DNA of 64,000 nucleotides from Escherichia coli. Its GTDB lineage: Bacteria > Pseudomonadota > Gammaproteobacteria > Enterobacterales > Enterobacteriaceae. The notes under the pieces were generated by a model, which saw nothing but the letters and a program-made list of their open reading frames with translations, was not told the DNA's origin and searched no databases. The translations under genes were made by a program, and so were the position numbers. The stretch is taken from the NCBI RefSeq assembly GCF_044324875.1, contig NZ_CP172188.1; one strand, 5' to 3'. Of this stretch, positions 1,023 through 53,675 are shown piece by piece. The number at the start of each line of letters is the position of its first letter. Positions within the stretch are counted from its first letter, which is position 1.

Positions 1023-1078
1023 TTGAAAAAACGCCTCAATTTGTTAAAATGATTGAATAATATCAATGAGCGCTGAGT

Positions 1079-2257
1079 ATGTTAAGAGCGACAAAAGTAC
1101 GCATATATCCCACTACTGAACAGGCTGAGTATCTCAATGCCCAGTTCGGTGCGGTACGTTTTGCGTACAATAAAGCTCTTCACATCAAAAAACATGCTTA
1201 CCAGCGATACGGGGTGAATTTAAGTCCGCGCAAAGATTTAAAGCCGTTGCTGTCTATAGCGAAGAAGTCCCGTAAGTATGCCTGGCTCAAAGAGTTTGAT
1301 TCAATGGCATTGCAACAGGCAGTAATTAATCTTGATGCGGCATTTTCCAACTTTTTTAATCCGAAGCTGAAAGCACGGTTCCCGACGTTTAAACGTAAAC
1401 ACGGGAGACAATCGAGCTATCACTGCACCGGAATCAAGGTGCTGGATGATGCCATTAAGATCCCTAAACTGAATCTGCCGATAAAGGCGCGTATACACCG
1501 TGTAATTACGGGAAAAGTAACGAGCATAACAATTACTCGCAATGCCGCTGGGGAATATCACGCATCCATCCTTTGTGATGACGGTATTCCCGCGCCAGAG
1601 AAACCCACGTATCTGGAAGAAGAAAAGATTACTGGTGTGGACATGGGATTAACAGATTATGCCATCAAATCGGATGGTAATAAGGTTGGTAATCCTCGTC
1701 ATCTCATCAATGCCAGTCGTAATCTGCGACGCAAACAAAAAGCGTTATCCCGCAAGCAAAAGGGAAGCGCGAACCGTAAAAAGGCCAGAATCCGTCTGGC
1801 AGCGTTACACGAACGGGTGGCTAATGCCCGTGCTGATTTTCAACACAAGCTCTCTCGTGCAATTGTTGACGAAAACCAAGCGGTAATTGTCGAGACGCTG
1901 AAAACAGCCAACATGATGAAAAACCACAATCTGGCAAGAGCGATAGGTGATGCAGGCTGGCATAGCTTCATCACAAAGCTGGAGTACAAGGCAGCGGAAA
2001 AAGGCGTTCACCTGGTAAAACTCGACCAGTGGTTTGCCAGTTCGAAAACGTGCCATTGTTGTGGTTACAAAATGCCGGAAATGCCGCTTCATAAACGCAT
2101 CTGGCGATGCCCTGAATGTGGAGCAGAGCACGACCGCGATATCAATGCGGCGCTCAATATCCGGCAAAAAGGAATACTGGAACTAAAGGCGGCGGGACTC
2201 GTCGTTTCTGTCCATGGAGGCCAGCGTAAATCCGTCGAACAGACGGTAGCGGCCTGA
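1079..2257 (+). CDS. tnpB: IS605-family TnpB (RuvC-like RNA-guided nuclease, OrfB)
   Basis: 392 aa; N-terminus MLRATKVRIYPT..., C-terminal zinc finger CHCCGY...CPECGAEHDRDINAALNI typical of TnpB. Confidence 0.85.
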   Translation: MLRATKVRIYPTTEQAEYLNAQFGAVRFAYNKALHIKKHAYQRYGVNLSPRKDLKPLLSIAKKSRKYAWLKEFDSMALQQAVINLDAAFSNFFNPKLKARFPTFKRKHGRQSSYHCTGIKVLDDAIKIPKLNLPIKARIHRVITGKVTSITITRNAAGEYHASILCDDGIPAPEKPTYLEEEKITGVDMGLTDYAIKSDGNKVGNPRHLINASRNLRRKQKALSRKQKGSANRKKARIRLAALHERVANARADFQHKLSRAIVDENQAVIVETLKTANMMKNHNLARAIGDAGWHSFITKLEYKAAEKGVHLVKLDQWFASSKTCHCCGYKMPEMPLHKRIWRCPECGAEHDRDINAALNIRQKGILELKAAGLVVSVHGGQRKSVEQTVAA

Positions 2258-8379: not shown

Positions 8380-9915
8380 TCAGTGGTAGTAGCCCGGACC
8401 ACGCAGGTTTTCATGCTCTGAAGCATATGCCGGATGTTGTTCGCCCTGGCGGGATAATGGAAGCTCCAGGTTCTCCCGATGGTGACGCAGCAGATTGTCG
8501 ATAAAGCGTCTGTCAGGGGCGTTATAGTGCAGGGCAACGTAACAGGCCTTTTCCAGCCGTTCCGGGCCGTATTTTTTCTGAAGTGCCAGCAGCCCCAGAA
8601 CTGCACGATAAGCCAGTTCCGGATGGGGTTTTGCCTTCAGCATGGATTCAACCACCCGGCCTGTGGACGGGCCCGTACGTTTTCCCTGCTCGATCAGGCG
8701 TTCCGGTGTCCATGTCCCGTGCTGCCGGTGGCGCTCTGGCATGTGAAGCGGATTGGTTGTGTGTTTATATTCATGTGTGCTGCGCGGATGTTGCGCCACA
8801 CACTGCCCCTTGTGCCAGAGCTGTACCACCGACTGCCCCGCCTTCAGTGACAGACGCTGACCGACCAGTTCGTGTGGAACGGAGTACCAGTGACGGGCAT
8901 ATTCAACGTGGTAGTCAGGGCCAACCTTCACAGCTTTGTATTCCGTGTATTCATAAGGTGCCAGAGGCAGCGGAGAGAGTGCTGGCGCATCCAGTATGCG
9001 GAAGCGTTCTGCACGGGTTTGATTGCCGTACCCCTTCATTGGCCGGTTATTCATGTCTGTCAGTAACTCCCTAAGGCGCGCATTCAGCGCCCTGAGCGTG
9101 TGGAAGGTTTCATTACGGATGCGGGCAAGAAGCCATCGTTCAACGATGAGGACGCCGTTTTCTGCTTTTGGTTTATCTTTAGGTTTGCGTGGTCGGGCCG
9201 GGATGATAACCGTGCCATAGTGCTCAGCCAGTGCCTGATAACTGTCGTTGATGACAGGCTCATATCGATCGGCCTTTTTCACTGCGCTTCTGAGGTTATC
9301 GGGGATGAGCAGCTTCGGTACGCCGCCCAGGAAGGTCAGGCAACGGCTGTGGGCATTTAACCATGACATCATGTCCTGACCTTCGCACGCTTCAACGTAG
9401 GTATAGTTGGACGCCCCCATTACGGCCACGAAGATTGCCACGCGGCGTATCTCACCGGTGTCCGGATTAATAACAGGAACCGTAGGACCACAGAAGTCGA
9501 TAAAAAGCTTTTCGCCGGCACGATGCTCCTGGCGCATGGAGAGACGTCGCGTTTTTTTCCACTCCCGGTAGCAACGGCAGAAGTGCGAGTATCCCATCGC
9601 TTTGTTACCCGCCTGTGCCTTGTATTCCATCCACAACAGTTGCCGCGTCACACCTGGTTTTCTCATTTCCGTATCGAAGTACAACATGTCAGGCATTACA
9701 AGCTCTGATGCAAAGGTGTCTTTGGGCGGAAAAATGAGTTTCTCCAGCGTGTCATGGGATATATCAGCAGGTAATGGCCATGACAGAGAAGAGGCTTTGA
9801 AGCGGGCAAGAACCTCAAAAACGGTTGAGGCGCTGATGTGTAACGTCAGTCCGATACAACGGTTAGTCAGCTTCTTGTCGAACTTGAGCTGAAGGATCTT
9901 AAAACAGGTTTCCAT
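8380..9915 (-). CDS. istA: IS21-family transposase IstA
   Basis: ~511 aa from METCF... (AGGAG Shine-Dalgarno); N-terminal HTH and a DDE-type core; the ORF track extends to 10026. Confidence 0.85.
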   Translation of the reverse strand: METCFKILQLKFDKKLTNRCIGLTLHISASTVFEVLARFKASSLSWPLPADISHDTLEKLIFPPKDTFASELVMPDMLYFDTEMRKPGVTRQLLWMEYKAQAGNKAMGYSHFCRCYREWKKTRRLSMRQEHRAGEKLFIDFCGPTVPVINPDTGEIRRVAIFVAVMGASNYTYVEACEGQDMMSWLNAHSRCLTFLGGVPKLLIPDNLRSAVKKADRYEPVINDSYQALAEHYGTVIIPARPRKPKDKPKAENGVLIVERWLLARIRNETFHTLRALNARLRELLTDMNNRPMKGYGNQTRAERFRILDAPALSPLPLAPYEYTEYKAVKVGPDYHVEYARHWYSVPHELVGQRLSLKAGQSVVQLWHKGQCVAQHPRSTHEYKHTTNPLHMPERHRQHGTWTPERLIEQGKRTGPSTGRVVESMLKAKPHPELAYRAVLGLLALQKKYGPERLEKACYVALHYNAPDRRFIDNLLRHHRENLELPLSRQGEQHPAYASEHENLRGPGYYH

Positions 9916-10307
9916 AGTGCTCCTGGATTTTCTCTTTCTGGACATTGACGTCTCCACTGGTTTAAACACGGCAATGGAGACTGTGGTGAAAAGAGTTAAT
10001 TCCCGGAGTGACTGGCAGGATGCCAATCAATGATCGGAAGCATGCCAAATCGTGATCGATTGTGATGCCAAACTGTGATCGGAGATGGATGCCAAATCAT
10101 GATCGATTCGAATGCCAAACTGCGATCGATTCAGATGCCATTTTGCAGCCAAATTTCTGTCAAAAAATAAAATCCACAAAAAGTGGTTGACACTATTTTG
10201 GAAATCACAAACTGCACATAATCCATCGCGCTAACGGCTCCCGTTGAAGGTTCTTTTGACGATTAACTTTCAGCCGAAGCGCGGTAGGGAGTCATAACGC
10301 CAAAGCA

Positions 10308-10358: not shown

Positions 10359-11012
10359 ATGGAAAAGATCGCAATATTCAGCCTGACCACCAGCAAGCCT
10401 CAAATGCTCACTGCAATACTGAAAGACGGTGCTCTCATTATTAACGAAGTAAAACCCCTTCCCGCGTCAGCATTGGAGCAAAAGCAAAAAATTCCTCCAG
10501 CTATAGCAGCCCTGCGGAAAAGCAAATTTAAGGTACTGGTAGACGAAATTACGCCAACGATCTCCGCTGGCACCGGAGCAAGCCAGGTTACTCTCAAGAC
10601 CCGTCATGCCGATGGCAGAGCAGCAATCATCGTCGGGATGGAAAGATACAGAGAGTTAAAACTCCAGAAGCTATTATCCCTGCCGCAAAATAACAAAGGT
10701 GCTTTCGAAATCCCTGACTCCATCGTTGACACCGAATACAACGGTAACGGAGAAGAAGTCTACCGGGTGAACTGGCAGGATATCAGGCCGGAACATATTC
10801 TGATGGTCCTGTGTTGCTACGCGACCGTATACCACAACGTTGCCAGTGCAGATTACGTAGAGCAGATGACCGGCACAGTCGAGAAAGAGCAAAAAACAGG
10901 CATACTCGCTTCGTTCCTGTCCATTATTGGGCATGAAAAAGTTGAAGCAGGCACCTCCCAGCCAAAGTCACTGGCTGGGAAAGAAGTTGATGAAGATACC
11001 GTGATACTTTGA
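10359..11012 (+). CDS. hypothetical protein (217 aa)
   Basis: GGAGGAAGGA Shine-Dalgarno before the ATG at 10359; no recognisable motif. Confidence 0.45.
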   Translation: MEKIAIFSLTTSKPQMLTAILKDGALIINEVKPLPASALEQKQKIPPAIAALRKSKFKVLVDEITPTISAGTGASQVTLKTRHADGRAAIIVGMERYRELKLQKLLSLPQNNKGAFEIPDSIVDTEYNGNGEEVYRVNWQDIRPEHILMVLCCYATVYHNVASADYVEQMTGTVEKEQKTGILASFLSIIGHEKVEAGTSQPKSLAGKEVDEDTVIL

Positions 11013-11348
11013 TCACATTAGTAGCTTTGTTAACTCCCTCAATACCAGGTAGAAGAGTAACAAAAACACTGACGTGGATACCTGCTGAGTTAAAGAAGCA
11101 CTAATGAATTTATTCAATAAATCAATCAGCTTATTAAAAATATTCATCTTTTCGAATCCATTCGATCGGTAAATAACACCCAGCTCACTATCGAGCTGGT
11201 CCACGCCTTAAGATTAATGAAAGTCACTTGTTGACAGTCAATAAATTCCAGGGTGGCGAAAAAACTCTGTCTATACGGATAGTGCTTGCATTTTACTCTT
11301 TCTGCGTGTAGCGTATATACACAGGTTGCACGCACGAATGGAATTATT

Positions 11349-11630
11349 TTGATTAAGTCATTTCGCCATAAAGGGCTTGAACGCTTTTTCAAGACAGGTT
11401 CAACCGCAGGCATTCAGGCCAAACATGCGGTTAAGCTACGCATTCAATTGACTGCGCTTAATACAGCTAAACGCCCGGACGATATGTCTGCGCCTGGATG
11501 GGAATTGCACCCTCTAAAGGGGGCGGACCTTAAAGGTCACTGGGCAATATCGGTAAACGGTAACTGGCGACTTACCTTCCGATTTGAAGGAGAAGACGCA
11601 ATTCTAGTTGACTATCAGGATTATCATTGA
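11349..11630 (+). CDS. higB: HigB-type toxin (plasmid-killer / RelE-like fold)
   Basis: [17 protein letters not shown]...[40 protein letters not shown] closely resembles Rts1-type HigB; probable TTG start at 11349. Confidence 0.7.
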
Positions 11631-11638
11631 GGAACACT

Positions 11639-11920
11639 ATGAGTCGTATGCATAATCCCGCGCATCCAGGCGCGGTTCTTCGTGAATATTTGGGAGACAT
11701 GTCAGTCACAGACGCCGCTGCGGCATTAGGCATTACTCGCACGGCGCTTTCCCGAATTCTGAATGAAAAAGCAGGTATATCTGCTGATATGGCACTTCGT
11801 CTGGAGTCCGCTCTTGGAACCAGTGCCGAAATGTGGACCGGTATGCAATCCCAGTATGAGCTTTGGGTTGCTTCGCAAACCACTCGCCCAAACATCCGTC
11901 CATTATTTTTCCACGCATAA
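11639..11920 (+). CDS. higA: HigA-type antitoxin (HTH, XRE-like)
   Basis: [18 protein letters not shown]...[14 protein letters not shown]...; start overlaps the higB stop region; GAGGA Shine-Dalgarno. Confidence 0.7.
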
Positions 11921-12012
11921 TTTCACAGCGTCACCAGGCCTGGTGACGCTGCTTTCTCGCATTTCACACCCTGCATACAGTTTTCCCCAGGTTATGACTG
12001 AGGGGCTTTGTT

Positions 12013-12342
12013 ATGGGCTATAGCAGACTCGACGATAGGTACATTGAAGACGATATTTTTCGTGCGCTGTTTCACCAGGAAATGATTAAGCGGGTATCGG
12101 AGTATCACTCTGATAATTTCCAGTACACGATAAAGATTGATGAAGTATATCGTTCAGACCTTGCAGCCTACAGGGCGTATGGCAATGCAGATTTGCGCTG
12201 GGTATTCCGGGTGCTGGTGGGCCATGAGTCAGAAATGGAAGAAATGCCCGCCGGGACCACGTTAACTCTTCCTGATGTGGCATGGCTGAGGAATAAGATC
12301 CGTGATTACGCGAGCGCGGAACCGGAGATAGAAAATGCCTGA
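12013..12342 (+). CDS. hypothetical protein (109 aa), first gene of a two-gene operon
   Basis: ORF; its stop overlaps the start of the next gene by 8 nt. Confidence 0.45.
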   Translation: MGYSRLDDRYIEDDIFRALFHQEMIKRVSEYHSDNFQYTIKIDEVYRSDLAAYRAYGNADLRWVFRVLVGHESEMEEMPAGTTLTLPDVAWLRNKIRDYASAEPEIENA

Positions 12343-13525
12343 TTTCCTGAAAAACCAGGACGGGCGCTATATCACTGACGGCCTGTCCTCTAAGGACTTC
12401 ACGCGTTTATTCGACCTTATCAGGAAAGAACAAACCCGTAAGCGCCGGCAAGCTCACCGGACGCTGACGCCAGGTAGACTGAGGAACAAATCCGCCGAAG
12501 ATATTCTCAAGTTAGGGAAGAAAAAAGGCGGCACGTTCTTCACGCGAGACGACCTGAAAGGTTTCGAAAAGCTACGGAGTAAAACGCGCGAAAAATATGA
12601 CAGCAAGACGGCTGGCATCACATACGCCCAGCTGGTGGCATCCAGCCAGGCAATCGATATTAAGCGTGCAAATAACGCCGTGGATGACGGATCTGGTATC
12701 AAAAGAGCTACACCCGTATCTCTTCGCCACAATGTGATTAATATCCGCGTAGAAGCATCGGATATATCCGTCCACCAGCACCATATCGTCCGGATACGCT
12801 TTGAAGAATGGGATCAGATGGTTGATGATATCGCAGAAGACGATAAATCAGCTCTCAAAATCACTAAATCACTGTGCGCCGGGCGAGTGTCTTTCGATTG
12901 TGACTGTGGTCGTCATCAATACTGGTATCGTTACATCGCCACTGCGGGTAACTTTGCCCTGGCACCGCCAAAAGAATACGCCTATCCAAAAGTTCGCAAC
13001 CCGAAGCTGCAAGGCGTCGCCTGTAAACACGTGATCCACTCAATGACGCGGTTACAGTCCGCCAGTTGGCAAATGAGTATTGCTCGTGCGCTACAAAAGG
13101 CTGCAACGCAAATTGCATTTGGTGACGATCGCCGCCGTACAACCAAACACTTCTCAAAAGAAGACGAGAAGGAGTTTAATCGCAATCGTAGCAGTAAAAC
13201 AAACGTTGAAGCCGCCAAACGCGAATGGAGGCTCTATCAGAAGCGCCAGGCAGCTTTAAGTACAAAACTGGCAAAGGACAACGGCAATATCGACAAGCTA
13301 CGTGACCAATTGACCAGGGCCAGAAAGTTGTCAGACGCACAGAAAAAACGGGCGGCTGCAAAAGAAGCGGCCTTGCAACGTGAGAAACAGAAAAATAAGG
13401 AACTTCAGCAACGCCTTGCCGATCAGTTCGCACTGAAGAAGCAGGCGTTCATTGATGCGCTTGTCATGGCTGGAACACCACCAGCACAAGCTGAAAAAAT
13501 GTTCATGGAGTACATAAAAAATTAA
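12335..13525 (+). CDS. hypothetical protein with a SWIM-like zinc-finger motif and a basic coiled-coil C-terminus
   Basis: CAGRVSFDCDCGRHQ...GVACKHVIH (CxC...CxH spacing); Lys/Arg/Glu/Gln-rich C-terminal 130 aa. Confidence 0.5.
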   Translation: MPDFLKNQDGRYITDGLSSKDFTRLFDLIRKEQTRKRRQAHRTLTPGRLRNKSAEDILKLGKKKGGTFFTRDDLKGFEKLRSKTREKYDSKTAGITYAQLVASSQAIDIKRANNAVDDGSGIKRATPVSLRHNVINIRVEASDISVHQHHIVRIRFEEWDQMVDDIAEDDKSALKITKSLCAGRVSFDCDCGRHQYWYRYIATAGNFALAPPKEYAYPKVRNPKLQGVACKHVIHSMTRLQSASWQMSIARALQKAATQIAFGDDRRRTTKHFSKEDEKEFNRNRSSKTNVEAAKREWRLYQKRQAALSTKLAKDNGNIDKLRDQLTRARKLSDAQKKRAAAKEAALQREKQKNKELQQRLADQFALKKQAFIDALVMAGTPPAQAEKMFMEYIKN

Positions 13526-13526
13526 C

Positions 13527-13552
13527 AAAGGTGGGTTTATCCCACCTTTTTA
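13527..13552. terminator. bidirectional terminator between convergent genes
   Basis: aggtggg-tttat-cccacct flanked by A and T runs. Confidence 0.5.
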
Positions 13553-14277
13553 TTAGCATCGCATTTAATTTTTTCAAGTGAATCAGAAAGCTTTGAGAGA
13601 ATCTCCTCAAGTGTCTCCCTGTCATTTGTATCACCCGAACGAAAAGATGAGTTTTTCACGGCAGTAAAAAATTCATAAAAATCATCCAACGAATTTAAGC
13701 TCTCACCTTTCTCTCTATATAATTTAATAACATGACGGATATCGCTATCCACACATTCAATCTGTTCCCTAACTTCTTCTACCTTTCTTTTTAATGATTC
13801 ATGTTCTTCTTTTTCTTTTTCAAGACGCTCTTCAACGTCTTTCCGTTTCTTAGTAAGATCATTAATGTCTCTGTTAATTTTTCTTACTTGTTCTTTTTTG
13901 TCTTCAATTTTATCTATCTCTCTCAATTTAGCGTATATTGTGCCAGTCACCATAGAAATTAGTAAAGTTAACATTGGGGCTAATATTGAAGCCACAACAC
14001 CATAAATAAAAGGCAAGACAAAATGAGCTACGAATGAGGGTACAAAAACATTCCCAAATAATGGAATCTTTTCCCCAACAAACACCATAGATAATGTATA
14101 CATAACATCATCTTTTGACTTCAACAATATAAATATATCTCGCCAGTTAGAAATTAAAAATGAAATAAAAATGTAGGCAAAAACCTTATTAAACAACTTA
14201 TCTTTTACAGCATCTTCTATCAGATTTTGGGCGGATGATTTTTCATTTTCCTTTTCTATTGATGAATCAGTGCTCAT
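13537..14277 (-). CDS. membrane protein with a long C-terminal coiled coil (unknown function)
   Basis: 246 aa; hydrophobic segments (FAYIFISFLISNW; VFVPSFVAHFVLPFIYGVVASILAPMLTLLISMV) then a K/E-rich heptad-like region; visibly AT-rich. Confidence 0.5.
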   Translation of the reverse strand: MSTDSSIEKENEKSSAQNLIEDAVKDKLFNKVFAYIFISFLISNWRDIFILLKSKDDVMYTLSMVFVGEKIPLFGNVFVPSFVAHFVLPFIYGVVASILAPMLTLLISMVTGTIYAKLREIDKIEDKKEQVRKINRDINDLTKKRKDVEERLEKEKEEHESLKRKVEEVREQIECVDSDIRHVIKLYREKGESLNSLDDFYEFFTAVKNSSFRSGDTNDRETLEEILSKLSDSLEKIKCDANKKVG

Positions 14278-14337
14278 ATAATCACCAAATATTTAAACCT
14301 TGATTTTATGTAAAATCGGCCCTCCAGACTGCCAAAC

Positions 14338-14718
14338 TTAAACACCAACTAGGCTTTCAAGAGGAATGCCAAACTGGGAATGTAAACGACGAATCATAGG
14401 TAACGTTAAATTTCGTGTCCCATTTAGCACTTCGTAAACACGATTTGACTTACCAATCGCCGGTTCCAGATCCTTCACGGTCAACCCTTGCTATTCCATA
14501 CGGGATTTAATGGCTTCAATAGGTGATGGCGGCTCAATTGGGTAATGTTTTTTCTCGTACTCCTCAATGAGAAGACACATAACCTCCAAGAAATTACCTT
14601 CCGGGGTGTTCGTTTCCGGTTCGTTATCGAACATCGGTTCTACCGCACGCAGTGCGGCCTCATAATCTTGTTCTGTACGGATAGTTTTAATGTTCATTAA
14701 TTCCAAAGGAAAGCCCAC
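14338..14718 (-). pseudogene. higA-like antitoxin gene (N-domain plus HTH) interrupted by an in-frame TAG
   Basis: 75-aa ORF ...IKSRME then TAG at 14491-14493; the same frame continues QGLTVKDLEPAIGKSNRVYEVLNGTRNLTLPMIRRLHSQFGIPLESLVGV to TAA at 14338, resembling the E. coli K-12 HigA C-terminal HTH. Confidence 0.45.
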
Positions 14719-14753
14719 TTGTTAAGTGGGCTTTTTGTATGTGTTTTACTATA

Positions 14754-15092
14754 TCAGGCTGCTTTTTTATTCAGGTTCCGCTGAGAAATAAATTTTTCAG
14801 CAGTATTGATACGACTTAACTCTTCCTGAACGCGCATGTCATTTTCGACTTCCCACAGGTCTACTGCGGTCTGGAGATTAATCCAAAAATCTACAGAAGT
14901 ATCGAATGCTTTTGCCAGGCGATATGCCATATCCATCGTTAGCTTACGATTATTATTAACAAGAGCACTTACGGTGTTACGATGAACATGAAGTATTTCT
15001 GCTAACTCGTTGATCTTCAGCTCTAACGGCTCCAGGTATTCGTACAGCAGGATATCACCTACGGTCGTCGGTTTTCTGGTTGCCTGTTTCAT
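14754..15092 (-). CDS. higA: HigA-family antitoxin (HTH), second TA pair
   Basis: KPTTVGDILLYEYLEPLELKINELAEILHVHRNTVSALVNNNRKLT...FWINLQTAVDLW matches the HigA antidote pattern. Confidence 0.7.
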   Translation of the reverse strand: MKQATRKPTTVGDILLYEYLEPLELKINELAEILHVHRNTVSALVNNNRKLTMDMAYRLAKAFDTSVDFWINLQTAVDLWEVENDMRVQEELSRINTAEKFISQRNLNKKAA

Positions 15093-15162
15093 TTTTTGCC
15101 CTTACTAGCGTGCGTATTAAGTGGACTCTGGTCAGAACCCGGTCCGTAACCGGGTATCTGTT

Positions 15163-15465
15163 TTAGTATTTGTGAGGGTCGAGATACAAGTCCTCGGCCT
15201 TTCCGTTAACCCACTTAAAAATTAACCTATATTGCTTATTCACCCTTACTGATGAATAGCCATTTAGCTTCCCTGACAGTTCCTCATACCGATTACCTGG
15301 TGGTGATCTTAAATCCTTACAGGTAGTTGCGGCATTGATAATGTCCAACTTCCGTGACAATGTCATATGAATATCAGGAGGTATCTTTCTATGTGGTGTT
15401 GAAAATTCAAAAAAATCATCAAGCCACGCATCCCTGAAATCCTTTATGTTAATTTTTTTGGTCAT
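15163..15465 (-). CDS. higB: HigB-like killer toxin, second TA pair
   Basis: ...DLRSPPGNRYEELSGKLNGYSSVRVNKQYRLIFKWVNGKAEDLYLDPHKY resembles the plasmid-killer (HigB) family; lies immediately upstream of the antitoxin. Confidence 0.65.
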   Translation of the reverse strand: MTKKINIKDFRDAWLDDFFEFSTPHRKIPPDIHMTLSRKLDIINAATTCKDLRSPPGNRYEELSGKLNGYSSVRVNKQYRLIFKWVNGKAEDLYLDPHKY

Positions 15466-15627
15466 TAGTCATTTGATCCTCCGTGATGATTACCGAATGC
15501 CATAACTATAGCGCACTGTTGCACTGTGCGCAAGTGCATTTTATGAATTCCCCCTCCTTCATCCAAAATCACAATCTCCCGAAAATCTTCCTTTCGATAC
15601 CTGACAGATCGACCTTTGAGGATGCTT

Positions 15628-16419
15628 ATGGGCCGTTTTGACGAATGGTTTGCTGACGATGCAAACCTGGCAAGTAAGGAGTCAGAACATGACAGCACGC
15701 AGAGAGAAACGCCAGCACCGATTGAAGCGAATGCAGGAGGCGCGCCGGAACATGGCAATACCGGTTCGGATTCATTCAGCATTCTGGAAGAGCAACCCGC
15801 CGCCAAAGCTGATAGCCATGATAATTTTGCTGATAGCAACGGTGGCCTTACTTCGGATGCTGGCGAATCAGATATAGCCATACTTCCATCTTCCCTGGCT
15901 GGCAGAGAACCGACTCCACAGTTAAAAGCACGCTATAACGGGCATAAAGCCTTTAACGACCAAATCCGCGCAGACTGGATGCTGATTATTGAATCCAGCC
16001 CAGACGCGTTTCAGGCTCTCTTATATCGACCAGATGTTGGCACATATGGGGTAGTCAGCGACGAAACAGGAGAAGAGTCATTCACCGAACTGGATAACAA
16101 CCAACGCGAACTGACTTACCAGGAACCTGAAATCGTTTATGTGCTGGATAACCCTGACGGGCGTGACTCTTTCCATGCGATTGACGCAGACGGTGAGCAG
16201 GATGGCTTAACCGATGATGTTCTGATTCTGCGTATTGCAGCAAATAACGTCCCCGTCGGCTCAATTCTTGAATGGAATGAAGAGATGGTAAACGGCGTAG
16301 CGCGCCGCTGGTGGTACGTGCACCGTATTTTTAGCTACGGCACACAGCATGTTGGTTCGCTTTACTACTGCATACCTGCCAGGAATTTTGATACGACTCA
16401 AAACGGAGTGATCGAATGA
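15628..16419 (+). CDS. phage virion morphogenesis protein (unknown role)
   Basis: First gene of a four-gene overlapping operon that ends in a spike-like gene; GAGGA Shine-Dalgarno; start at 15628. Confidence 0.4.
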   Translation: MGRFDEWFADDANLASKESEHDSTQRETPAPIEANAGGAPEHGNTGSDSFSILEEQPAAKADSHDNFADSNGGLTSDAGESDIAILPSSLAGREPTPQLKARYNGHKAFNDQIRADWMLIIESSPDAFQALLYRPDVGTYGVVSDETGEESFTELDNNQRELTYQEPEIVYVLDNPDGRDSFHAIDADGEQDGLTDDVLILRIAANNVPVGSILEWNEEMVNGVARRWWYVHRIFSYGTQHVGSLYYCIPARNFDTTQNGVIE

Positions 16420-17183
16420 CTTCAAATAAAACCCTCCTGGCGCGAACAGGTGAATGGCAAACCTCACGCACAGGAAAATTCCAGACCACGGGCTTTGAAA
16501 ACGTGGATAACGCGTTTGCGACGCTAATCAGCAACATTTTTTCTGATATCTTACTGGTGGCCCCCGCGCCGGAAGAAAAACGCTTTGCGTCATTCCTGAA
16601 TCGTCCACCAGCAGAGCGTGTCTATGTGGCCCGTTTCGACAATGCGATCGAGTTTCTTAAAGCAGTTCGTCGCGCAAATGCCGGGCAAGGGAGAAAACCT
16701 GAAAACCAGAACATTAACCGGGATGCTCTCCCCCTGGTCAATATCTCACGCAATATGGATATCAATTATATCAACGATGATCAGCAGATTGACCGCAAAA
16801 AAGTAGCCAGTTTTTGCGAACCGGATACCGGAATGCCTTTAGCAGAACTGGAATACACCCAGGCCATTCTGACGTATGACGTTACGTTAATGGCAACTGA
16901 TAAAGCGACCATGAGTCTGATGTGTAATTCGCTGGGCGCACGGCTTCGCCTGATGACAGGTACACAATTTGAAGCAACCACTCACCTTGTTCGTGTCCCG
17001 GTCCCGCTGATTAGCTCGATACAGGATGCCAAAGAAGTCGGCTTTACGGATGTTTCAGCACCAATTGGAGAAGAGCGTATTTATGCCACACAAGCGCCGA
17101 TAAGTGTGATTGCAGACGTGATCACAGCATGGGAGTTGGACGCAAAACGTATTATTACCGAAACCTCGATATCTATGGGGTGA
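16416..17183 (+). CDS. phage structural / baseplate-associated protein (unknown)
   Basis: Overlapping start/stop coupling within the operon. Confidence 0.4.
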   Translation: MTSNKTLLARTGEWQTSRTGKFQTTGFENVDNAFATLISNIFSDILLVAPAPEEKRFASFLNRPPAERVYVARFDNAIEFLKAVRRANAGQGRKPENQNINRDALPLVNISRNMDINYINDDQQIDRKKVASFCEPDTGMPLAELEYTQAILTYDVTLMATDKATMSLMCNSLGARLRLMTGTQFEATTHLVRVPVPLISSIQDAKEVGFTDVSAPIGEERIYATQAPISVIADVITAWELDAKRIITETSISMG

Positions 17184-17186
17184 TAA

Positions 17187-18167
17187 GTGGCCCAGGAGTT
17201 ACAACAATATTTTCTACAGTCAGTGCTCATTAACGATAACAAAGTGCCACGAGACTGGATTTTTACCGCAGTATATGTAGAAAAAACCAGCCTCAAAGCC
17301 CCTTTGCTAAAACTGGAAATTCATGACGCTACCGGCACCGTAATTGATGACTGGAAAGCCAAATACGGTGCATCGCTGGTGGCTGAAATGGGCGATCCAA
17401 ACGGTAATGCAGGCACTTTTAAAACAGATTTCTTTGTTACGTCTGCAATGCTGGCTGGTGATGTTGTTACCGTTATTGCTGTCAGTGAAGACGTGCGCAG
17501 GTTTAAGATCCCCTCCCCGCGCACAAATTTACATACCAACAAAACACCAGACGCTATATTCAAGGCATATTCCGGCAAGCTTAAAATTACCAGCAGCGTG
17601 CTAAAACGCGCAGTTACATATCATCTGAATGCCGGTGACAAACCGTCAAAAATGCTTTCGGAGATAGCGCGAGACAAAGGTGCATTATGTTGGGTATGCC
17701 GGGGGGAATTTAACTTTTACACCCTGGATGATCTGATGAAGCAAACGCCATCATTTACCTACGAGGGGAATAACCCTAAAGCAGAATACACTTTGTCCAA
17801 AATGCGCCTACTCCAACAGGAACATGCGACAACAGCAAAGAATCAATATCGTTTTGTTGGGTATTCCATGACCGATGGCTACGTCGAATATGGCGATAGC
17901 TCACTCCCAGTGCGTTATATATCCGACTCTGATATGGAAACTCTTCGCAATATGCAGCTGTCTCTCGTCCCCAAAATGGATATAGAAGTCGCAGGCAATC
18001 CGGATATAAAACCGGGAATGGTAATAGAGATTATCGTATACCGCTATGACCAGGAAAACCGCATTGATGAATCAATGCCCCGCAAGCTGATAGTAAAAAA
18101 TGTTGCGCACTTTGAAGACCGCGTAGGCTACACAACACGAATGATATTAGGAGTGCCGAACAAATGA
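17187..18167 (+). CDS. baseplate / tail-associated protein (unknown)
   Basis: 326 aa; stop overlaps the start of the spike-like gene. Confidence 0.4.
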   Translation: MAQELQQYFLQSVLINDNKVPRDWIFTAVYVEKTSLKAPLLKLEIHDATGTVIDDWKAKYGASLVAEMGDPNGNAGTFKTDFFVTSAMLAGDVVTVIAVSEDVRRFKIPSPRTNLHTNKTPDAIFKAYSGKLKITSSVLKRAVTYHLNAGDKPSKMLSEIARDKGALCWVCRGEFNFYTLDDLMKQTPSFTYEGNNPKAEYTLSKMRLLQQEHATTAKNQYRFVGYSMTDGYVEYGDSSLPVRYISDSDMETLRNMQLSLVPKMDIEVAGNPDIKPGMVIEIIVYRYDQENRIDESMPRKLIVKNVAHFEDRVGYTTRMILGVPNK

Positions 18168-18817
18168 AGCGTAGAGCGCAAATTGTTGGAACTGTGCACC
18201 CGGCAGGGCTTATGCGTGCTCAGGTCCGTGTTTTACCAGACTGGAATGGCGTTCCTGATGACGATCTACCCTGGGCAGAATACCTGTTACCCATAGGTAA
18301 CGCGTTTGTACCTACAGTAAAAGGCGACCTGGTATGGGTAGAGTTTCCTTATCTGGATGTTAATGGTCGAATTGATACCAGACGCCCAATGATAGTTGGC
18401 GCAGCTCAGGATGCGCCTGGCGGAGTACCAAACGTCGCGCCGGAGGCGTCAGGCAATGGTAGCGGCTGGACGCCACCAGAAGTAGACGGAGCGCCTCCCC
18501 GCCCGCAATTTTCGGCGACAAAAGATTTCGTGATTCACCGCAACAATGTGCTCGAAGTGCGAACGGCTGGCGGTGGATATGAAATAGCGAATACGGCAGC
18601 AGGCTCAAGGATTGGAATGAATGAATCAGGGCAGATATACATCATTGGTCCGGCTGATGTAGTAGTGAATGCGGGAGGGAGTGTTAACGTCAAATCAGCC
18701 GATAACATCAGCGTTAATGGCAAAAACATTACTGTGACAGCCGACGAAAATATTGATTTCAAGGCTGGAGGCACCTTCCAGGCTATCGCAAGCAACTTTG
18801 ATTTCAAGAAGGGATAG
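18164..18817 (+). CDS. baseplate central spike protein (gpV-like)
   Basis: N-terminal region VRVLPDWNGVPDDDLPWAEYLLPIG... and a Gly-rich C-terminal repeat-like region (ISVNGKNITVTADENIDFKAGG) resembling gpV-type spikes. Confidence 0.5.
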   Translation: MKRRAQIVGTVHPAGLMRAQVRVLPDWNGVPDDDLPWAEYLLPIGNAFVPTVKGDLVWVEFPYLDVNGRIDTRRPMIVGAAQDAPGGVPNVAPEASGNGSGWTPPEVDGAPPRPQFSATKDFVIHRNNVLEVRTAGGGYEIANTAAGSRIGMNESGQIYIIGPADVVVNAGGSVNVKSADNISVNGKNITVTADENIDFKAGGTFQAIASNFDFKKG

Positions 18818-18826
18818 AAAACACAT

Positions 18827-18870
18827 CCAATTGTGTTAGATAATTGAACAGAATTTTCTAACACAATTGG
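18827..18870. promoter_or_regulatory. perfect 14-bp inverted repeat carrying the dispersed motif in both orientations, upstream of rdgC
   Basis: CCAATTGTGTTAGA (18827-18840) ... TCTAACACAATTGG (18857-18870), 16-bp spacer. Confidence 0.45.
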
Positions 18871-18876
18871 TGAAAC

Positions 18877-19782
18877 ATGAGATCAGTCGCTTTCAAAAAC
18901 ATCTTCATCTATCGTCTTTCACGTGAAGTTAACTGGAGTGCCGCAGAAGTATCCGATGCTCTTAGCAAATTCGTGTTTACTCCTTGCGGTTCTCAGGACA
19001 CAGCTAAAGTCGGTTGGACACCTGTTCTTGGTGACAACCTCACCCATGAATACCAGGGTTTTCTGCTAATACAGCATAAGCGAGAAGAAAAAATTCTCCC
19101 CTCGCAGGTGCTCAAGGAAGAGTTGCAGAAAAAAGTCCTGAAACTCGAAGAAGAGCAAGCCCGCAAGCTGAAGAAAACGGAAAGAGACAGTCTTAAAGAT
19201 GAAGTCCTGCATTCCCTTTTGCCTCGCGCGTTCACGAGAAAATCACTCGCCAAAATCCTGATCGACCGCAGCAACCATCTGGTATTCGTTGAGGCAAGCA
19301 GCGCCAAAAAGGCAGAGGACCAGCTGGCTTTATTGCGAAAATCGCTCGGCAGCCTGCCTGTCATTCCATTCACACCACGCGAACCGCTGGAAATTACAAT
19401 GACCGAGTGGTTTAAAAACGGCTTCCCTGCCGGATTTACAGCAGGTGAAGACGCCACATTAAAGGGTCTGCTCGATAATGGTGGTGCCGTTCGCTGCAAC
19501 AAAGTTGATCTACAGTCCGACGAGATTATGTCTCACATTGAGGCGGGGAAAGTAGCTACGACCGTTGCAATTAACTGGATGGAACGCGCGTCGTTCAGAG
19601 TCAACGATGATATGAGTATCAAAGCCCTGACATTCTGTGATGATCTCTATGACCAGAACGACGATATCGACCGGGAGGATGTAGCACAACGATTTGATGC
19701 TGATTTCGTGCTCTTTACGGGCGAATTATCTGCACTGTTTAACGCGCTGGTGGAGGCCATTGGCGGTGAAGCAGAACGATAA
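18877..19782 (+). CDS. rdgC: recombination-associated protein RdgC homologue
   Basis: 301 aa; near-colinear similarity to E. coli RdgC as I recall it ([35 protein letters not shown]..., [26 protein letters not shown]). Confidence 0.85.
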
Positions 19783-51257: not shown

Positions 51258-53036
51258 TTTCGACATTGGGTCTGGTTATTCAATCAATAACTACGACCAA
51301 TAGTTGTTTCTAACAACCAAGATTTTCCCGACCTTCATGAGGGCCTTTAACGAGGTGATGGGGTTAACATGTAACCATTCGTCCTGGTAACATTGTTTAA
51401 TTATATGGTATGCAGGCTATAAACGTTGGTTTAGGAGAAGCGGCGCTATGCGTTGGTGTGCCTGTTCAGTGGCCCCCGCCACACCGCCATTGCAGGCTTA
51501 ATTAAATTGTGAGGGCGCGTTTACAAAAGAACAATATCAGTTCTGGCCAGAAAACCCGACCCTCCGCTTCCCGATTTAGCGGTGCGATATCCGTGGATCA
51601 CTATGACGAGACGAAAGGTTGATACACGGGCGTGCCTCTTTGGAGTTTCGCCCTTGGGACTATCGTATCCGGTTTTGATGCGCCGATGCATACCGGAGAT
51701 TTCAGGTTACGTGGTCGGCTGCCACACAAACGGATGGTGACGCATTTAACCTGATCACCTGGGGGTATAAATGGCAAAAAGTGGATATTTGATGCATCCC
51801 AACCGGTGCACAAAGATATGACTGGCGGACTTACCACCAGCAAAACAGCCTGCCACAATATGGGATTTAACTATATCGTGAAGGCGGCGTATACCGTTAC
51901 TGAACGGCATAGAGCCGCAGTGGCGCTGGCCAGCTGCAACGCCAGAAACCTTGTGATATCCAGGCGTTCAGCTCGTCGATATAATCCAGCACGGCGGGCA
52001 GTTTTGCCGTTTCTTCCAGTTTCAGACTGCGACCTGCCCGCCGTTTGGGTTGATAGGTCGACGGCTTCACGCCTGGATCCACCCGGCACTGGCGTTGCAG
52101 TTGGCAAGTCTCCAGCTCTGCGGCTCTATGCCGGCTCAGTATCACGCCGCCCACGATTACCGTTCCAGGTATCCCATGGTGTGGCAGGCTGTTTTGTGGT
52201 GGTGTCCGCCGGTAATCACCCGGTTGAGGTGCATCAGAACGGGGTTCCCGTTTTCCGTTTATACCGTCTCCCGCGGTGATTAGGGTTACATGCGTCCCAA
52301 ATCCGTTCAGTGTGGCAGTCCGAAACCACGTAACCCGATATCCTCCGGTATGCATTATCATCACGAACCGGAGTACGATAGTCCCAAGGGCGAGATACTG
52401 AAAGTAGCGCACGCCCGGTATCAACCTTTCGTCCGTCATATCCACGGATAAACTCACCGCGTAAATCGGGAAGACGGATCGGTTAGACTCTGGCCAGAAC
52501 AGGATATTGTTCTTTTGTAAACGCGCCCTCACAATGTAACCAGCCTGCTACGGCGGTGTGACGGTGATACCCTTCGCATACAGGCTTCTGATAGAGGTCA
52601 GAATAGTAGCCTGCATACCATTGTCTGACATTACCACGATGTTACGAGGATCGCTGAATGTTGTCCCGTCCGGCATTTTGAAGGCCCTCACGAAGGTCTG
52701 TAATGGAATCTTCATTGTTGAATCCCATGCCGACTATCCCCGAGGTTCCCGTAGTGTCCTGGTTATAATAATCCAGCATTGCTGTTCTTAACAGCGTTGC
52801 CCCTTGTGCGGACAGCAACTTACGTCCTGTATCAACTTTGCGCCCGTCGTCCCATCCACGGATAAACTCACCGCGTAAATCGGGAAGACGGAGGGTCGGG
52901 TAGGCTCTGGCCAGAACAGGATATTGTTCTTTTGTAAAGGCGCGCCCGTCGCACTTTAACCAGCCTGCTGGCGGTGTGGCGGTGGGCCACGGAACAGGCA
53001 CACCAACGGGTAGCGCCGAGCCTTCTCCTAAACCAA
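50995..53036. other. invertible tail-fibre segment (Cin/Gin-type) with ~210-bp inverted repeats plus two degenerate internal repeat copies
   Basis: IR-L 50995-51205 and IR-R 52826-53036 are near-identical inverted copies beginning with TTGGTTTAGGAGAAGG; degenerate copies at ~51425-51640 (direct) and ~52440-52570 (inverted, partial); invertase gene starts 67 bp beyond IR-R. Confidence 0.6.
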
Positions 53037-53102
53037 CGTTTATCTCTCAAATCCTCCCCACATTATCTCAGTACTTTAACCACTCAAAAGGGAGTATTTT
53101 TA

Positions 53103-53675
53103 ATGCTGATTGGCTACATACGTGTGTCAACAAATGACCAAAACACAGATTTGCAACGCAATGCATTAATGTGCGCAGGATGTGAACAGATTTTTGAGGA
53201 CAAAATGAGCGGAACCAAGTCGGAACGACCAGGCCTGAAACGCGCTTTAAAGTGCCTTAAAAGAGGGGATACATTGGTGGTCTGGAAGCTGGATCGGTTG
53301 GGTAGAAGAATGAAACACCTCATTGCTCTCACAGAAGAGCTACGCGCAAAAGGTGTCAATTTTCGCAGTCTGACGGATTCAATCGATACCAGCACTCCGA
53401 TGGGAAGGTTCTTTTTTCATATGATGGGTGCACTGGCAGAAATGGAGCGTGAACTGATAGTTGAGCGCACGCTGGCAGGACTGGCTGCTGCGCGATCACA
53501 AGGAAGAGTTGGAGGACGTCGCCCGAAACTGACGAAGGAGCAGCATGAGCAGATCGCAAGATTGCTCCAGAAAGGGTATGACAGAAAGCGGCTGGCAATT
53601 ATCTATGATATTGGACTGTCAACGATCTACCGCTATCACCCTGTTGGGACTGTCATAACGCAACCTGAAATGTAA
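53103..53675 (+). CDS. serine DNA invertase (Hin/Gin/Cin/Pin family)
   Basis: MLIGYIRVSTNDQNTDLQ..., RPGLKRAL, LVVWKLDRLGR, C-terminal HTH; 190 aa. Confidence 0.85.
   Translation: MLIGYIRVSTNDQNTDLQRNALMCAGCEQIFEDKMSGTKSERPGLKRALKCLKRGDTLVVWKLDRLGRRMKHLIALTEELRAKGVNFRSLTDSIDTSTPMGRFFFHMMGALAEMERELIVERTLAGLAAARSQGRVGGRRPKLTKEQHEQIARLLQKGYDRKRLAIIYDIGLSTIYRYHPVGTVITQPEM

Follow-up and report, generated by a model that had tools for sequence, protein, structure and literature searches.

Two overlapping open reading frames (ORFs) in a stretch of Escherichia coli DNA raise the question of whether a small gene pair lodged between a HigBA toxin-antitoxin pair and a membrane protein gene is an accessory unit of its own or a part of the machinery that builds a phage particle. 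The pair lies at positions 12013-13525 of a 64,000-nucleotide (nt) stretch of contig NZ_CP172188.1 (RefSeq assembly GCF_044324875.1), referred to here as the window, and an earlier note, made from the sequence letters, had described it as a two-gene operon for a SWIM-like zinc-finger protein of unknown role that stands outside any morphogenesis operon. The region is 95% identical in DNA sequence to phage D6 and matches around 290 enterobacterial plasmids of about 90 kb at 85-99% identity, and the window can thus be assigned to a D6/P1-type phage-plasmid. Homology identifies the two ORFs as this element's genes 26 and 25, and both genes have already been described and annotated in phages D6 and P1. 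In particular, the 396-aa protein (12335-13525, plus strand, ATG start) matches phrog_1722 'tail protein' over residues 2-395 (E 1.1e-196) and is 98.7% identical to D6 orf74 and 57% identical to P1 gp25 by tblastn. The 109-aa protein (12013-12342, plus strand, ATG start) matches phrog_1269 'baseplate wedge subunit' (E 2.3e-36) and P1 gp26 (41% identity over 96 residues, E 9e-19). The D6 record itself labels orf75 as 'similar to P1 gene 26' and orf74 as 'similar to P1 gene 25'. Both ORFs are present in the ORF list and share the 8 nt at 12335-12342, as the earlier note had it. At this junction (12324-12342, plus strand) a GGAG (12324-12327) is placed 7 nt 5' of the gene 25 ATG at 12335, and the TGA of gene 26 (12340-12342) falls inside codons 2-3 of gene 25, so that translational coupling of the two genes is plausible. 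As annotation, this outcome is ordinary: both genes belong to the known morphogenesis set of P1 and D6 and are not themselves cargo.

The identification has different consequences for the two proteins. In two independent cryo-electron microscopy (cryo-EM) studies, P1 gp26 forms a T4 gp53-related 'plug' with six-fold symmetry that connects the wedges (PmgA, gp16, BplA) to the hub (PMC12810830; bioRxiv 10.1101/2025.07.21.665459), a role that had earlier been predicted by HHpred (PMC9024508). By homology to these structures, the gp26 of the window would be a gp53-like plug joining baseplate wedges to hub. Like P1 gp26, to which it is homologous and which stands for the T4 gp53-type plugs (BH1a/LysM-like class), the 109-aa protein is acidic (isoelectric point, pI, 4.77) and is encoded first in the operon, while its N-terminus is 16 residues shorter than that of P1 gp26; a LysM-like sequence pattern can be seen in the gp26 alignment by eye only. 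Since P1 gp26 has been modelled as part of the baseplate, the 109-aa protein can no longer be described as one of unknown role. The earlier note had named clear homology to a known structural protein as the finding that would overturn its reading, and this is what the smaller gene product displays. The larger one is a homolog of a named protein whose function is known from a mutant phenotype only, and its molecular role is indeed given as unknown in the literature (PMC9024508).

The position of the pair is also explained by comparison with its relatives. In P1, genes 26-25-7-24-6-5 are contiguous and lie 3' of the late promoter LP26 and a C1 operator. In the window, the displaced rest of this operon was found on the plus strand at 15628-18766. 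Genes 7 (15628-16419, head-tail stopper) and 24 (16416-17183, tail terminator) were recognized by phrog_1906 and phrog_1767 and by tblastn with P1 gp7 and gp24, whose products act as stopper and terminator in the P1 structure (PMC12810830). Genes 6 (hub, ~17205-18161) and 5 (spike, ~18167-18766) follow at approximate tblastn coordinates, with 38% and 46% identity to P1 gp6 and gp5 and matches to phrog_1390 and phrog_430. The space between genes 25 and 7 is occupied by four genes on the opposite strand (13537-15465), identified from the ORF list and the D6 annotation. The 25/7 junction was surveyed in 80 IMG/VR loci together with P1, D6 and the window; four had no gene 7, leaving 79 P1-clade loci with both genes. 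Gene 7 starts at most 24 nt 3' of gene 25 in 45 of these 79, which comprise P1-type elements and lineages whose gp25 is just 57-65% identical to that of the window. The other 34 carry inserts of 325-2909 nt with varied gene content, and all of them have a D6-type gene 25 (61-100% identical to the window's). In two very distant loci, L008 and L009 (~33-36% identity), a gp26-like gene is still followed by gp25-like, gp7-like, gp24-like and hub genes, in this order. The 45 contiguous loci and the order in L008 and L009 indicate that the contiguous operon is ancestral and that the 25/7 junction is a cargo hotspot of the D6 clade. On this comparison, it is a morphogenesis operon into which the HigBA pair and the membrane-protein gene were inserted, and 26-25 is a morphogenesis unit. 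The view that the pair lies outside such an operon is thus overturned, as both genes are homologs of P1 genes 26 and 25 and the rest of the operon is nearby. The proposed comparison across related elements speaks the same way: 26-25 is constant and the 26-25-7-24 order recurs in distant phages.

The description of a two-gene operon may hold in a restricted sense. By descent the two genes are the first of 26-25-7-24-6-5, but in the window they appear to form a bicistron that ends at a bidirectional, intrinsic-terminator-like hairpin (13528-13552), AAAGGTGGG-TTTAT-CCCACCTTT, with A/T runs on both sides, which was found by inspection of the sequence and by a terminator scan in the minus-strand orientation. 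As this hairpin sits between the convergent stops of gene 25 and of the 246-aa membrane-protein gene, 26-25 is probably a terminated bicistron here, and 7-24-6-5 must have its own promoter within 15466-15627. Such a promoter fits the puzzling result that dCas12a roadblocks in P1 genes 25 and 26 are non-polar on 7-24-6-5 (PMC10695390). In the history that would account for this arrangement, opposite-strand cargo was inserted between genes 25 and 7 in the D6 clade and a second HigBA pair was acquired upstream in the window; as these insertions split the operon, 26-25 appears to be a self-contained, translationally coupled bicistron. The gp25 of the window, P1 gp25 and D6 orf74 share full-length homology, length class, the position after gene 26 and the invariant CxC...CxH motif, although the last ~60 residues of the window protein are not alignable to P1 gp25 by tblastn. 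The surroundings differ: P1 gene 25 has gene 7 within 3 nt on its 3' side and the late promoter and C1 operator on its 5' side, whereas in the window and D6 it is followed by a terminator and then by inserted cargo, and the window alone of the three has the extra HigBA on the 5' side.

With the pair identified, the question becomes what gp25 does. It is the sole product of 26-25-7-24-6-5 that was left unplaced by two near-complete cryo-EM inventories and unnamed by HHpred. Indeed, gp7 was placed in P1 as stopper, gp24 as terminator, gp6 as hub, gp5 as spike and gp26 as plug, while gp25 is in neither inventory (PMC12810830; bioRxiv 10.1101/2025.07.21.665459), and an HHpred search with P1 gp25 found nothing (PMC9024508). 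The products that have been placed are all present in three or six copies (plug, stopper and terminator six each, hub and spike three each). The label 'tail stability protein' goes back to amber mutants viewed by electron microscopy (cited in PMC9024508 and PMC10695390) and has spread through the P1 genome annotation. This phenotype may in part reflect polarity on genes 7 and 24, which would be consistent with the fact that gp7, now known to be a head-completion protein, was put in the same phenotype class as gp25. In purified P1 virions, liquid chromatography-mass spectrometry (LC-MS) detected gp25 by 2 peptides with 8.4% coverage (PMC9024508). A tryptic artefact of lysine and arginine richness was considered as the cause of this weak signal and ruled out, since 26 suitable peptides are predicted for P1 gp25. 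The contrast between 26 predicted and 2 detected peptides argues for low abundance in virions, and, taken together with the absence from both inventories, for a low copy number.

The composition of the protein is distinctive. The whole gp25 of the window has a pI of 10.06 and a net charge of +34, and its N-terminal, core and C-terminal parts are each net positive. The same holds across the family, where the pI exceeds 9 in all 138 representatives (median 10.06) and all three regions are again each net positive. Within the P1 operon, gp25 is the only basic product (pI 10.1, as opposed to 4.1-6.5 for the others), and between P1 and the window it is the best conserved, with 57% identity as compared to 41% for gp26, 46% for gp7, 22% for gp24, 38% for gp6 and 46% for gp5. 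The highly basic coiled-coil tail described earlier is confirmed: residues 263-396 have a pI of 10.2 and a net charge of +15, and long helices are predicted at 291-331, 334-378 and 383-395, so that a basic, coiled-coil-like helical tail (13205-13522, plus strand) would end in a small conserved C-terminal helix pair. In a few family members, this region gives weak matches to ZapB, SHOCT and Filament. The family is large, with 885 representatives (clusters at 50% identity) at E<=1e-3 in an exhaustive profile search, 268 of them at E<=1e-30; almost all are 320-450 aa long and have the core at a constant position. Sequence databases offer little by way of a name. No match of gp25 to Pfam was obtained even at E<=10, nothing was found in NCBIfam, and searches of PDB sequences with gp25 and with a profile of its core returned nothing meaningful.

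The conserved core (residues 58-272; 12506-13150, plus strand) is predicted from the alignments and an AlphaFold2 model to consist of helices, a three-stranded sheet and a zinc finger. The peptides quoted in the earlier note were found in the protein, and the cysteine cluster pointed out there is real and strictly conserved as a CxC...CxH motif, but the first cysteine quoted there, C179 of a 'CAGR' stretch, is variable and lies outside the site. The predicted zinc ligands, all in invariant columns of 12899-13030 on the plus strand, are C189 (codon 12899-12901), C191 (12905-12907), C230 (13022-13024) and H232 (13028-13030), with a spacer of 38 residues between the two halves. No change of C189, D190, C191, C230, K231 or H232 was seen in an alignment of 18 homologs, which extends to 26% identity and includes those of Xanthomonas phage Rb1 and Acinetobacter phage ABMM1. 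Among 144 diverse representatives (50% identity clusters) just ten columns are invariant, namely G94, C189, C191, E214, P218, N222, G227, C230, K231 and H232, four of which (E214, P218, N222, G227) belong to the spacer. All 269 retrieved members carry the CxC...CxH, and 264 of them have a spacer of 37-38 residues.

These invariant ligand positions, together with the fold, bear out the SWIM-like zinc finger proposed from sequence. The AlphaFold2 model of the core, built from a deep alignment, has high confidence (pLDDT 94.8, pTM 0.91); in its three-stranded sheet a strand ends at the CxC, and a helix begins at the CxH. The sole strong fold match in the PDB is ZSWIM8 (9rwz), and Shu2 (6dex) is among the matches. 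The check by AlphaFold and Foldseek that had been proposed for the 396-aa protein has thus given a confident core and a ZSWIM8 match, and it has not brought up any structural protein of known function: a search with the full-length model against viral structures returned only uncharacterized phage proteins, with no fibre-like repeats or fibre fold, which were also not seen in the PDB search with the core. In AFDB50, only members of the same family were found, many of them named 'SWIM-type domain-containing protein' by UniProt, we assume by an automatic rule. The signature, the topology around the two ligand pairs and the ZSWIM8 and Shu2 matches are shared with the SWIM domain of Pfam (PF04434), whereas other traits set gp25 apart: none of the 144 family members matches that profile or any other informative domain, the conserved spacer is fixed at 37-38 residues, and the core is phage-specific and bears basic arms. 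Classical SWIM spacers are shorter, at about 6-25 residues. We conclude, on the strength of alignments and model, that the finger of gp25 is of the SWIM type, has a conserved insert of unusual length and is set in a phage-specific domain of about 215 residues.

The neighbourhood of gp25 in distant relatives was also considered. A gp26-like gene lies directly 5' of the gp25-like gene in six of eight distant loci, three of these matches being independent of the training set of the hidden Markov model; the adjacency is found in the window, P1, D6, ABMM1 and the loci L005, L006, L008, L009 and L010. In Rb1, the gp26-like gene is ~12 kb away. The gene directly 3' is always one of two, either gp7-like (L008, L009) or a phrog_4597 gene (ABMM1, Rb1, L005, L006, L010). 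The latter encodes a conserved protein of about 170 aa at the position of P1 gene 7 in the ABMM1/Rb1 clade (L004 5699-6247; L003 7884-8387; L005 9092-9598; L006 2968-3471; L010 10080-10607); the idea that it is a gp7-like stopper is unsupported (hhalign probability 2.5%). In ABMM1, Rb1 and L005 the next gene encodes a phrog_1014 protein, labelled major capsid in Rb1 and head vertex in ABMM1. On the other side, tail-fibre genes stand directly 5' of the 26-25 pair in ABMM1, L005 and L010, and the notion that the ABMM1 pair directly follows a portal gene was ruled out, the upstream gene being tail-fibre-like. Synteny thus ties gp25 to the plug as well as to head completion, and favours neither of the two.

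Taken together, these observations lead us to propose, with slightly less than even confidence, that gp25 is a low-copy or transient, zinc-stabilized, polyanion-binding morphogenetic factor that acts in tail completion or head-tail joining. Its SWIM core would dock on a partner, while its basic helical arms would bind a polyanion. The case for polyanion binding is drawn from the pI above 9 throughout the family, the net positive charge of each region, the position as the sole basic product of the operon and the highest conservation therein. A more specific version, which we favour by analogy but regard as rather doubtful, is that gp25 attaches to the DNA inside the neck or tail channel, at the end of the genome or close to it, in the manner of T4 gp2. 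Such a role at the DNA end would account for the essential or near-essential nature of gp25, for its scarcity in virions and for its failure to show in symmetrized cryo-EM maps.

The analogy comes from gene order and composition. In T4, genes 4 (head closure), 2 (DNA end protector) and 3 (tail terminator) are on one strand, and 53 (plug) and 5 (spike) are divergent and adjoining. This grouping was observed in the T4 segment 73500-81200 (L092), where the functional set matches that of P1 26-25-7-24-6-5, and it suggests an old module of 'low-copy parts' in myophages. The only member of the T4 set with no recognized P1 counterpart is gp2. Like gp25, gp2 is very basic (pI 10.1; net charge +29 as compared to +34), a few hundred residues long and a low-copy virion protein, and its gene lies between those for head closure and tail terminator and adjoins those for a gp53-type plug and the spike. 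In contrast to gp25, it has an N-terminal helix-turn-helix (HTH), no cysteine and no detectable homology, so that the likeness is positional and physicochemical only.

Several points weigh against this proposal. Homology between gp25 and T4 gp2 (phrog_429) was tried and rejected, with an hhalign probability of 0.1% and no cysteines in gp2, and phmmer found no T4 gp2 homolog among the ORFs of the window. In known proteins, SWIM domains make protein-protein contacts more often than they bind DNA. DNA binding, zinc binding and virion location are for gp25 inferred only. Its gene follows the plug gene in most lineages, and the pair comes after tail-fibre genes in ABMM1, L005 and L010, so that a baseplate role fits at least as well as one in the neck. 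The amber label could, as noted above, reflect polarity on genes 7 and 24. Moreover, CRISPR interference against P1 gene 25 lowers plating by only about tenfold (PMC10695390).

A bolder extension of the DNA-end hypothesis, which we consider decidedly unlikely, is that the gp25 family represents a class of 'pilot' proteins, so far unrecognized, that carry a zinc finger and bind DNA ends in the P1 supergroup of myophages. Within the neck or tail channel, a few copies would ride on the end of the packaged genome, where they would be needed for stable head-tail joining, and would then enter the cell with the DNA to shield its ends from RecBCD, as T4 gp2 does.

The alternative that survives best, unlikely though far from negligible in our estimate, regards gp25 as a non-structural assembly helper, a cofactor or chaperone that serves the acidic plug gp26 or the joining of wedges to hub. 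Made 1:1 with gp26 through translational coupling, gp25 would hold it by charge complementarity and the SWIM module and would be released at baseplate closure, comparable to the catalytic or chaperone roles proposed for T4 gp51 and gp26. The gp26-like gene directly 5' in the window, P1, D6 and the six distant relatives listed above agrees with such a partnership, as do the 8-nt overlap with its internal ribosome-binding site and the opposite charges of the two proteins (pI 10.06 for gp25, 4.77 for gp26). The lack of gp25 in the cryo-EM models and its trace presence in LC-MS (PMC12810830, PMC9024508) are likewise what a transient helper would leave behind, and the role has been raised by the authors of PMC9024508 themselves. 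However, genes 26 and 25 do not overlap in P1, and in Xanthomonas phage Rb1 the gp25-like gene adjoins phrog_4597 and a capsid gene, far from its gp26-like gene. Nor, in our judgement, would a dedicated chaperone typically have a pI close to 10 throughout its family and be the best-conserved product of its operon.

Much the same scarcity in the structural data could be read in another way, namely that gp25 is a flexible external part of the virion that has been lost by symmetry averaging. It could, for instance, be a whisker of coiled coil or an adaptor that anchors the fibres, placed at the rim of the baseplate or at the neck. The C-terminal helical region of ~100 residues and the tail-fibre genes immediately 5' of 26-25 in ABMM1, L005 and L010 would suit such a part. 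Indeed, the fibres and their attachment are unresolved in both cryo-EM studies (PMC12810830; bioRxiv 10.1101/2025.07.21.665459), and gp25 was detected in purified virions (PMC9024508). Nevertheless, at least 6 copies of a 45-kDa protein should yield more than 2 of 26 possible LC-MS peptides, the strong positive charge is judged unusual for an exposed fibre protein, and the structure searches gave no hint of fibre-like repeats or a fibre fold; this reading is therefore quite improbable.

The last alternative takes 26-25 as accessory cargo (defence, anti-defence or regulatory) among toxin-antitoxin genes, and it draws on the fact that SWIM fingers are present in some nucleic-acid-targeting proteins, on the flanking HigBA-type modules and membrane protein, and on the label 'transcriptional regulator MvaT' given to the Rb1 homolog in one database. 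It is hardly credible, as homology and synteny all but refute it: both genes have P1 orthologs that amber mutants define as late morphogenetic genes (PMC10695390), the 26-25-7-24 order is kept in distant phages, the flanking toxin-antitoxin genes are the variable inserts and 26-25 the constant part, and a defence system in particular is rejected because PADLOC gave no match for the 109-aa or the 396-aa protein.

The inserted genes themselves and the signals around them deserve description. The flanks are as the earlier note had stated, a HigB/HigA pair at 11286-11920 and a 246-aa membrane protein on the opposite strand at 13537-14277. The upstream pair, on the plus strand, consists of a HigB-like toxin (11286-11630) and a HigA antitoxin (11627-11920), with the plasmid labels 'RelE/ParE family toxin' and 'HigA family antitoxin', and represents cargo 5' of gene 26; it is present in the window and some plasmids but not in phage D6, with which homology resumes at ~11949. 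Just 3' of the higA stop, at the edge of the leader homologous to D6, there is a perfect 26-nt palindrome (11926-11951) with the halves CAGCGTCACCAGG and CCTGGTGACGCTG. D6 has a different hairpin at this site, and the palindrome could be a terminator or an insertion scar. The 64-nt leader of gene 26 (11949-12012, plus strand), which aligns with that of D6, contains no sigma-70-like promoter by promoter scan. A scan for P1-type late promoters (the LP26 -22 box, N3-5, -10) gave 10 matches as compared to ~11 expected by chance, none of them at gene 26 or gene 7.

The cargo at the 25/7 junction, all of it on the minus strand, comprises the 246-aa membrane protein (13537-14277), with hydrophobic segments and a coiled-coil half, a 75-aa HTH ORF (14491-14718), a 112-aa HigA-like HTH protein (14754-15092) and a 100-aa HigB/RelE-like toxin (15163-15465). 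The 75-aa ORF matches the first 69 of 402 positions of the PADLOC model PD-Lambda-2_B (E 2e-20) only, and represents either what is left of a truncated defence gene or an HTH protein that stands alone. Between the divergent HigB-like gene and gene 7, the intergenic DNA at 15500-15540 contains GCACTG/TGCACT motifs in repeated and inverted copies (GCACTGTTGCACTGTGCGCAAGTGCA); these could be an operator or part of the gene 7 promoter that was needed once the operon had been split.

Other mobile or phage functions were observed elsewhere in the window and in a distant relative. A basic 395-aa ORF at 1070-2254 (plus strand) is a transposase matching phrog_506, and was thus ruled out as a paralog of gp25. 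A 548-aa mobile-element ORF at 8380-10026 (minus strand) looks like an IS21-type transposase and lies in a block with a G+C content of 0.54 as compared to ~0.46. At 52938-53672 (plus strand) a DNA invertase (phrog_125, E 4e-95) is encoded, presumably Cin-like and switching a tail-fibre segment. In the distant prophage locus L010, the trio of 26, 25 and phrog_4597 is followed by Dar-like genes; these large genes (10684-19083), with DarA_N, ddrB-ParB and methyltransferase/helicase (DarB-like) domains, resemble the anti-restriction Dar system of P1, which suggests a wider P1 supergroup.

The gap left by gp25 is notable given that the protein belongs to a large family of 885 clusters and is the best conserved in its operon, uniformly basic and endowed with an invariant SWIM-type site. 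The hypothesis of a gp2-like protein at the DNA end is relevant to the way in which linear DNA injected by P1 or by its transducing particles is protected. After abortive transduction, P1 DNA is reportedly held as a protein-linked circle, and, if the pilot proposal were true, gp25 would be a candidate for the protein concerned. The cargo site between genes 25 and 7 matters in its own right for how D6-type phage-plasmids gain toxin-antitoxin and defence-like genes without breaking virion assembly.

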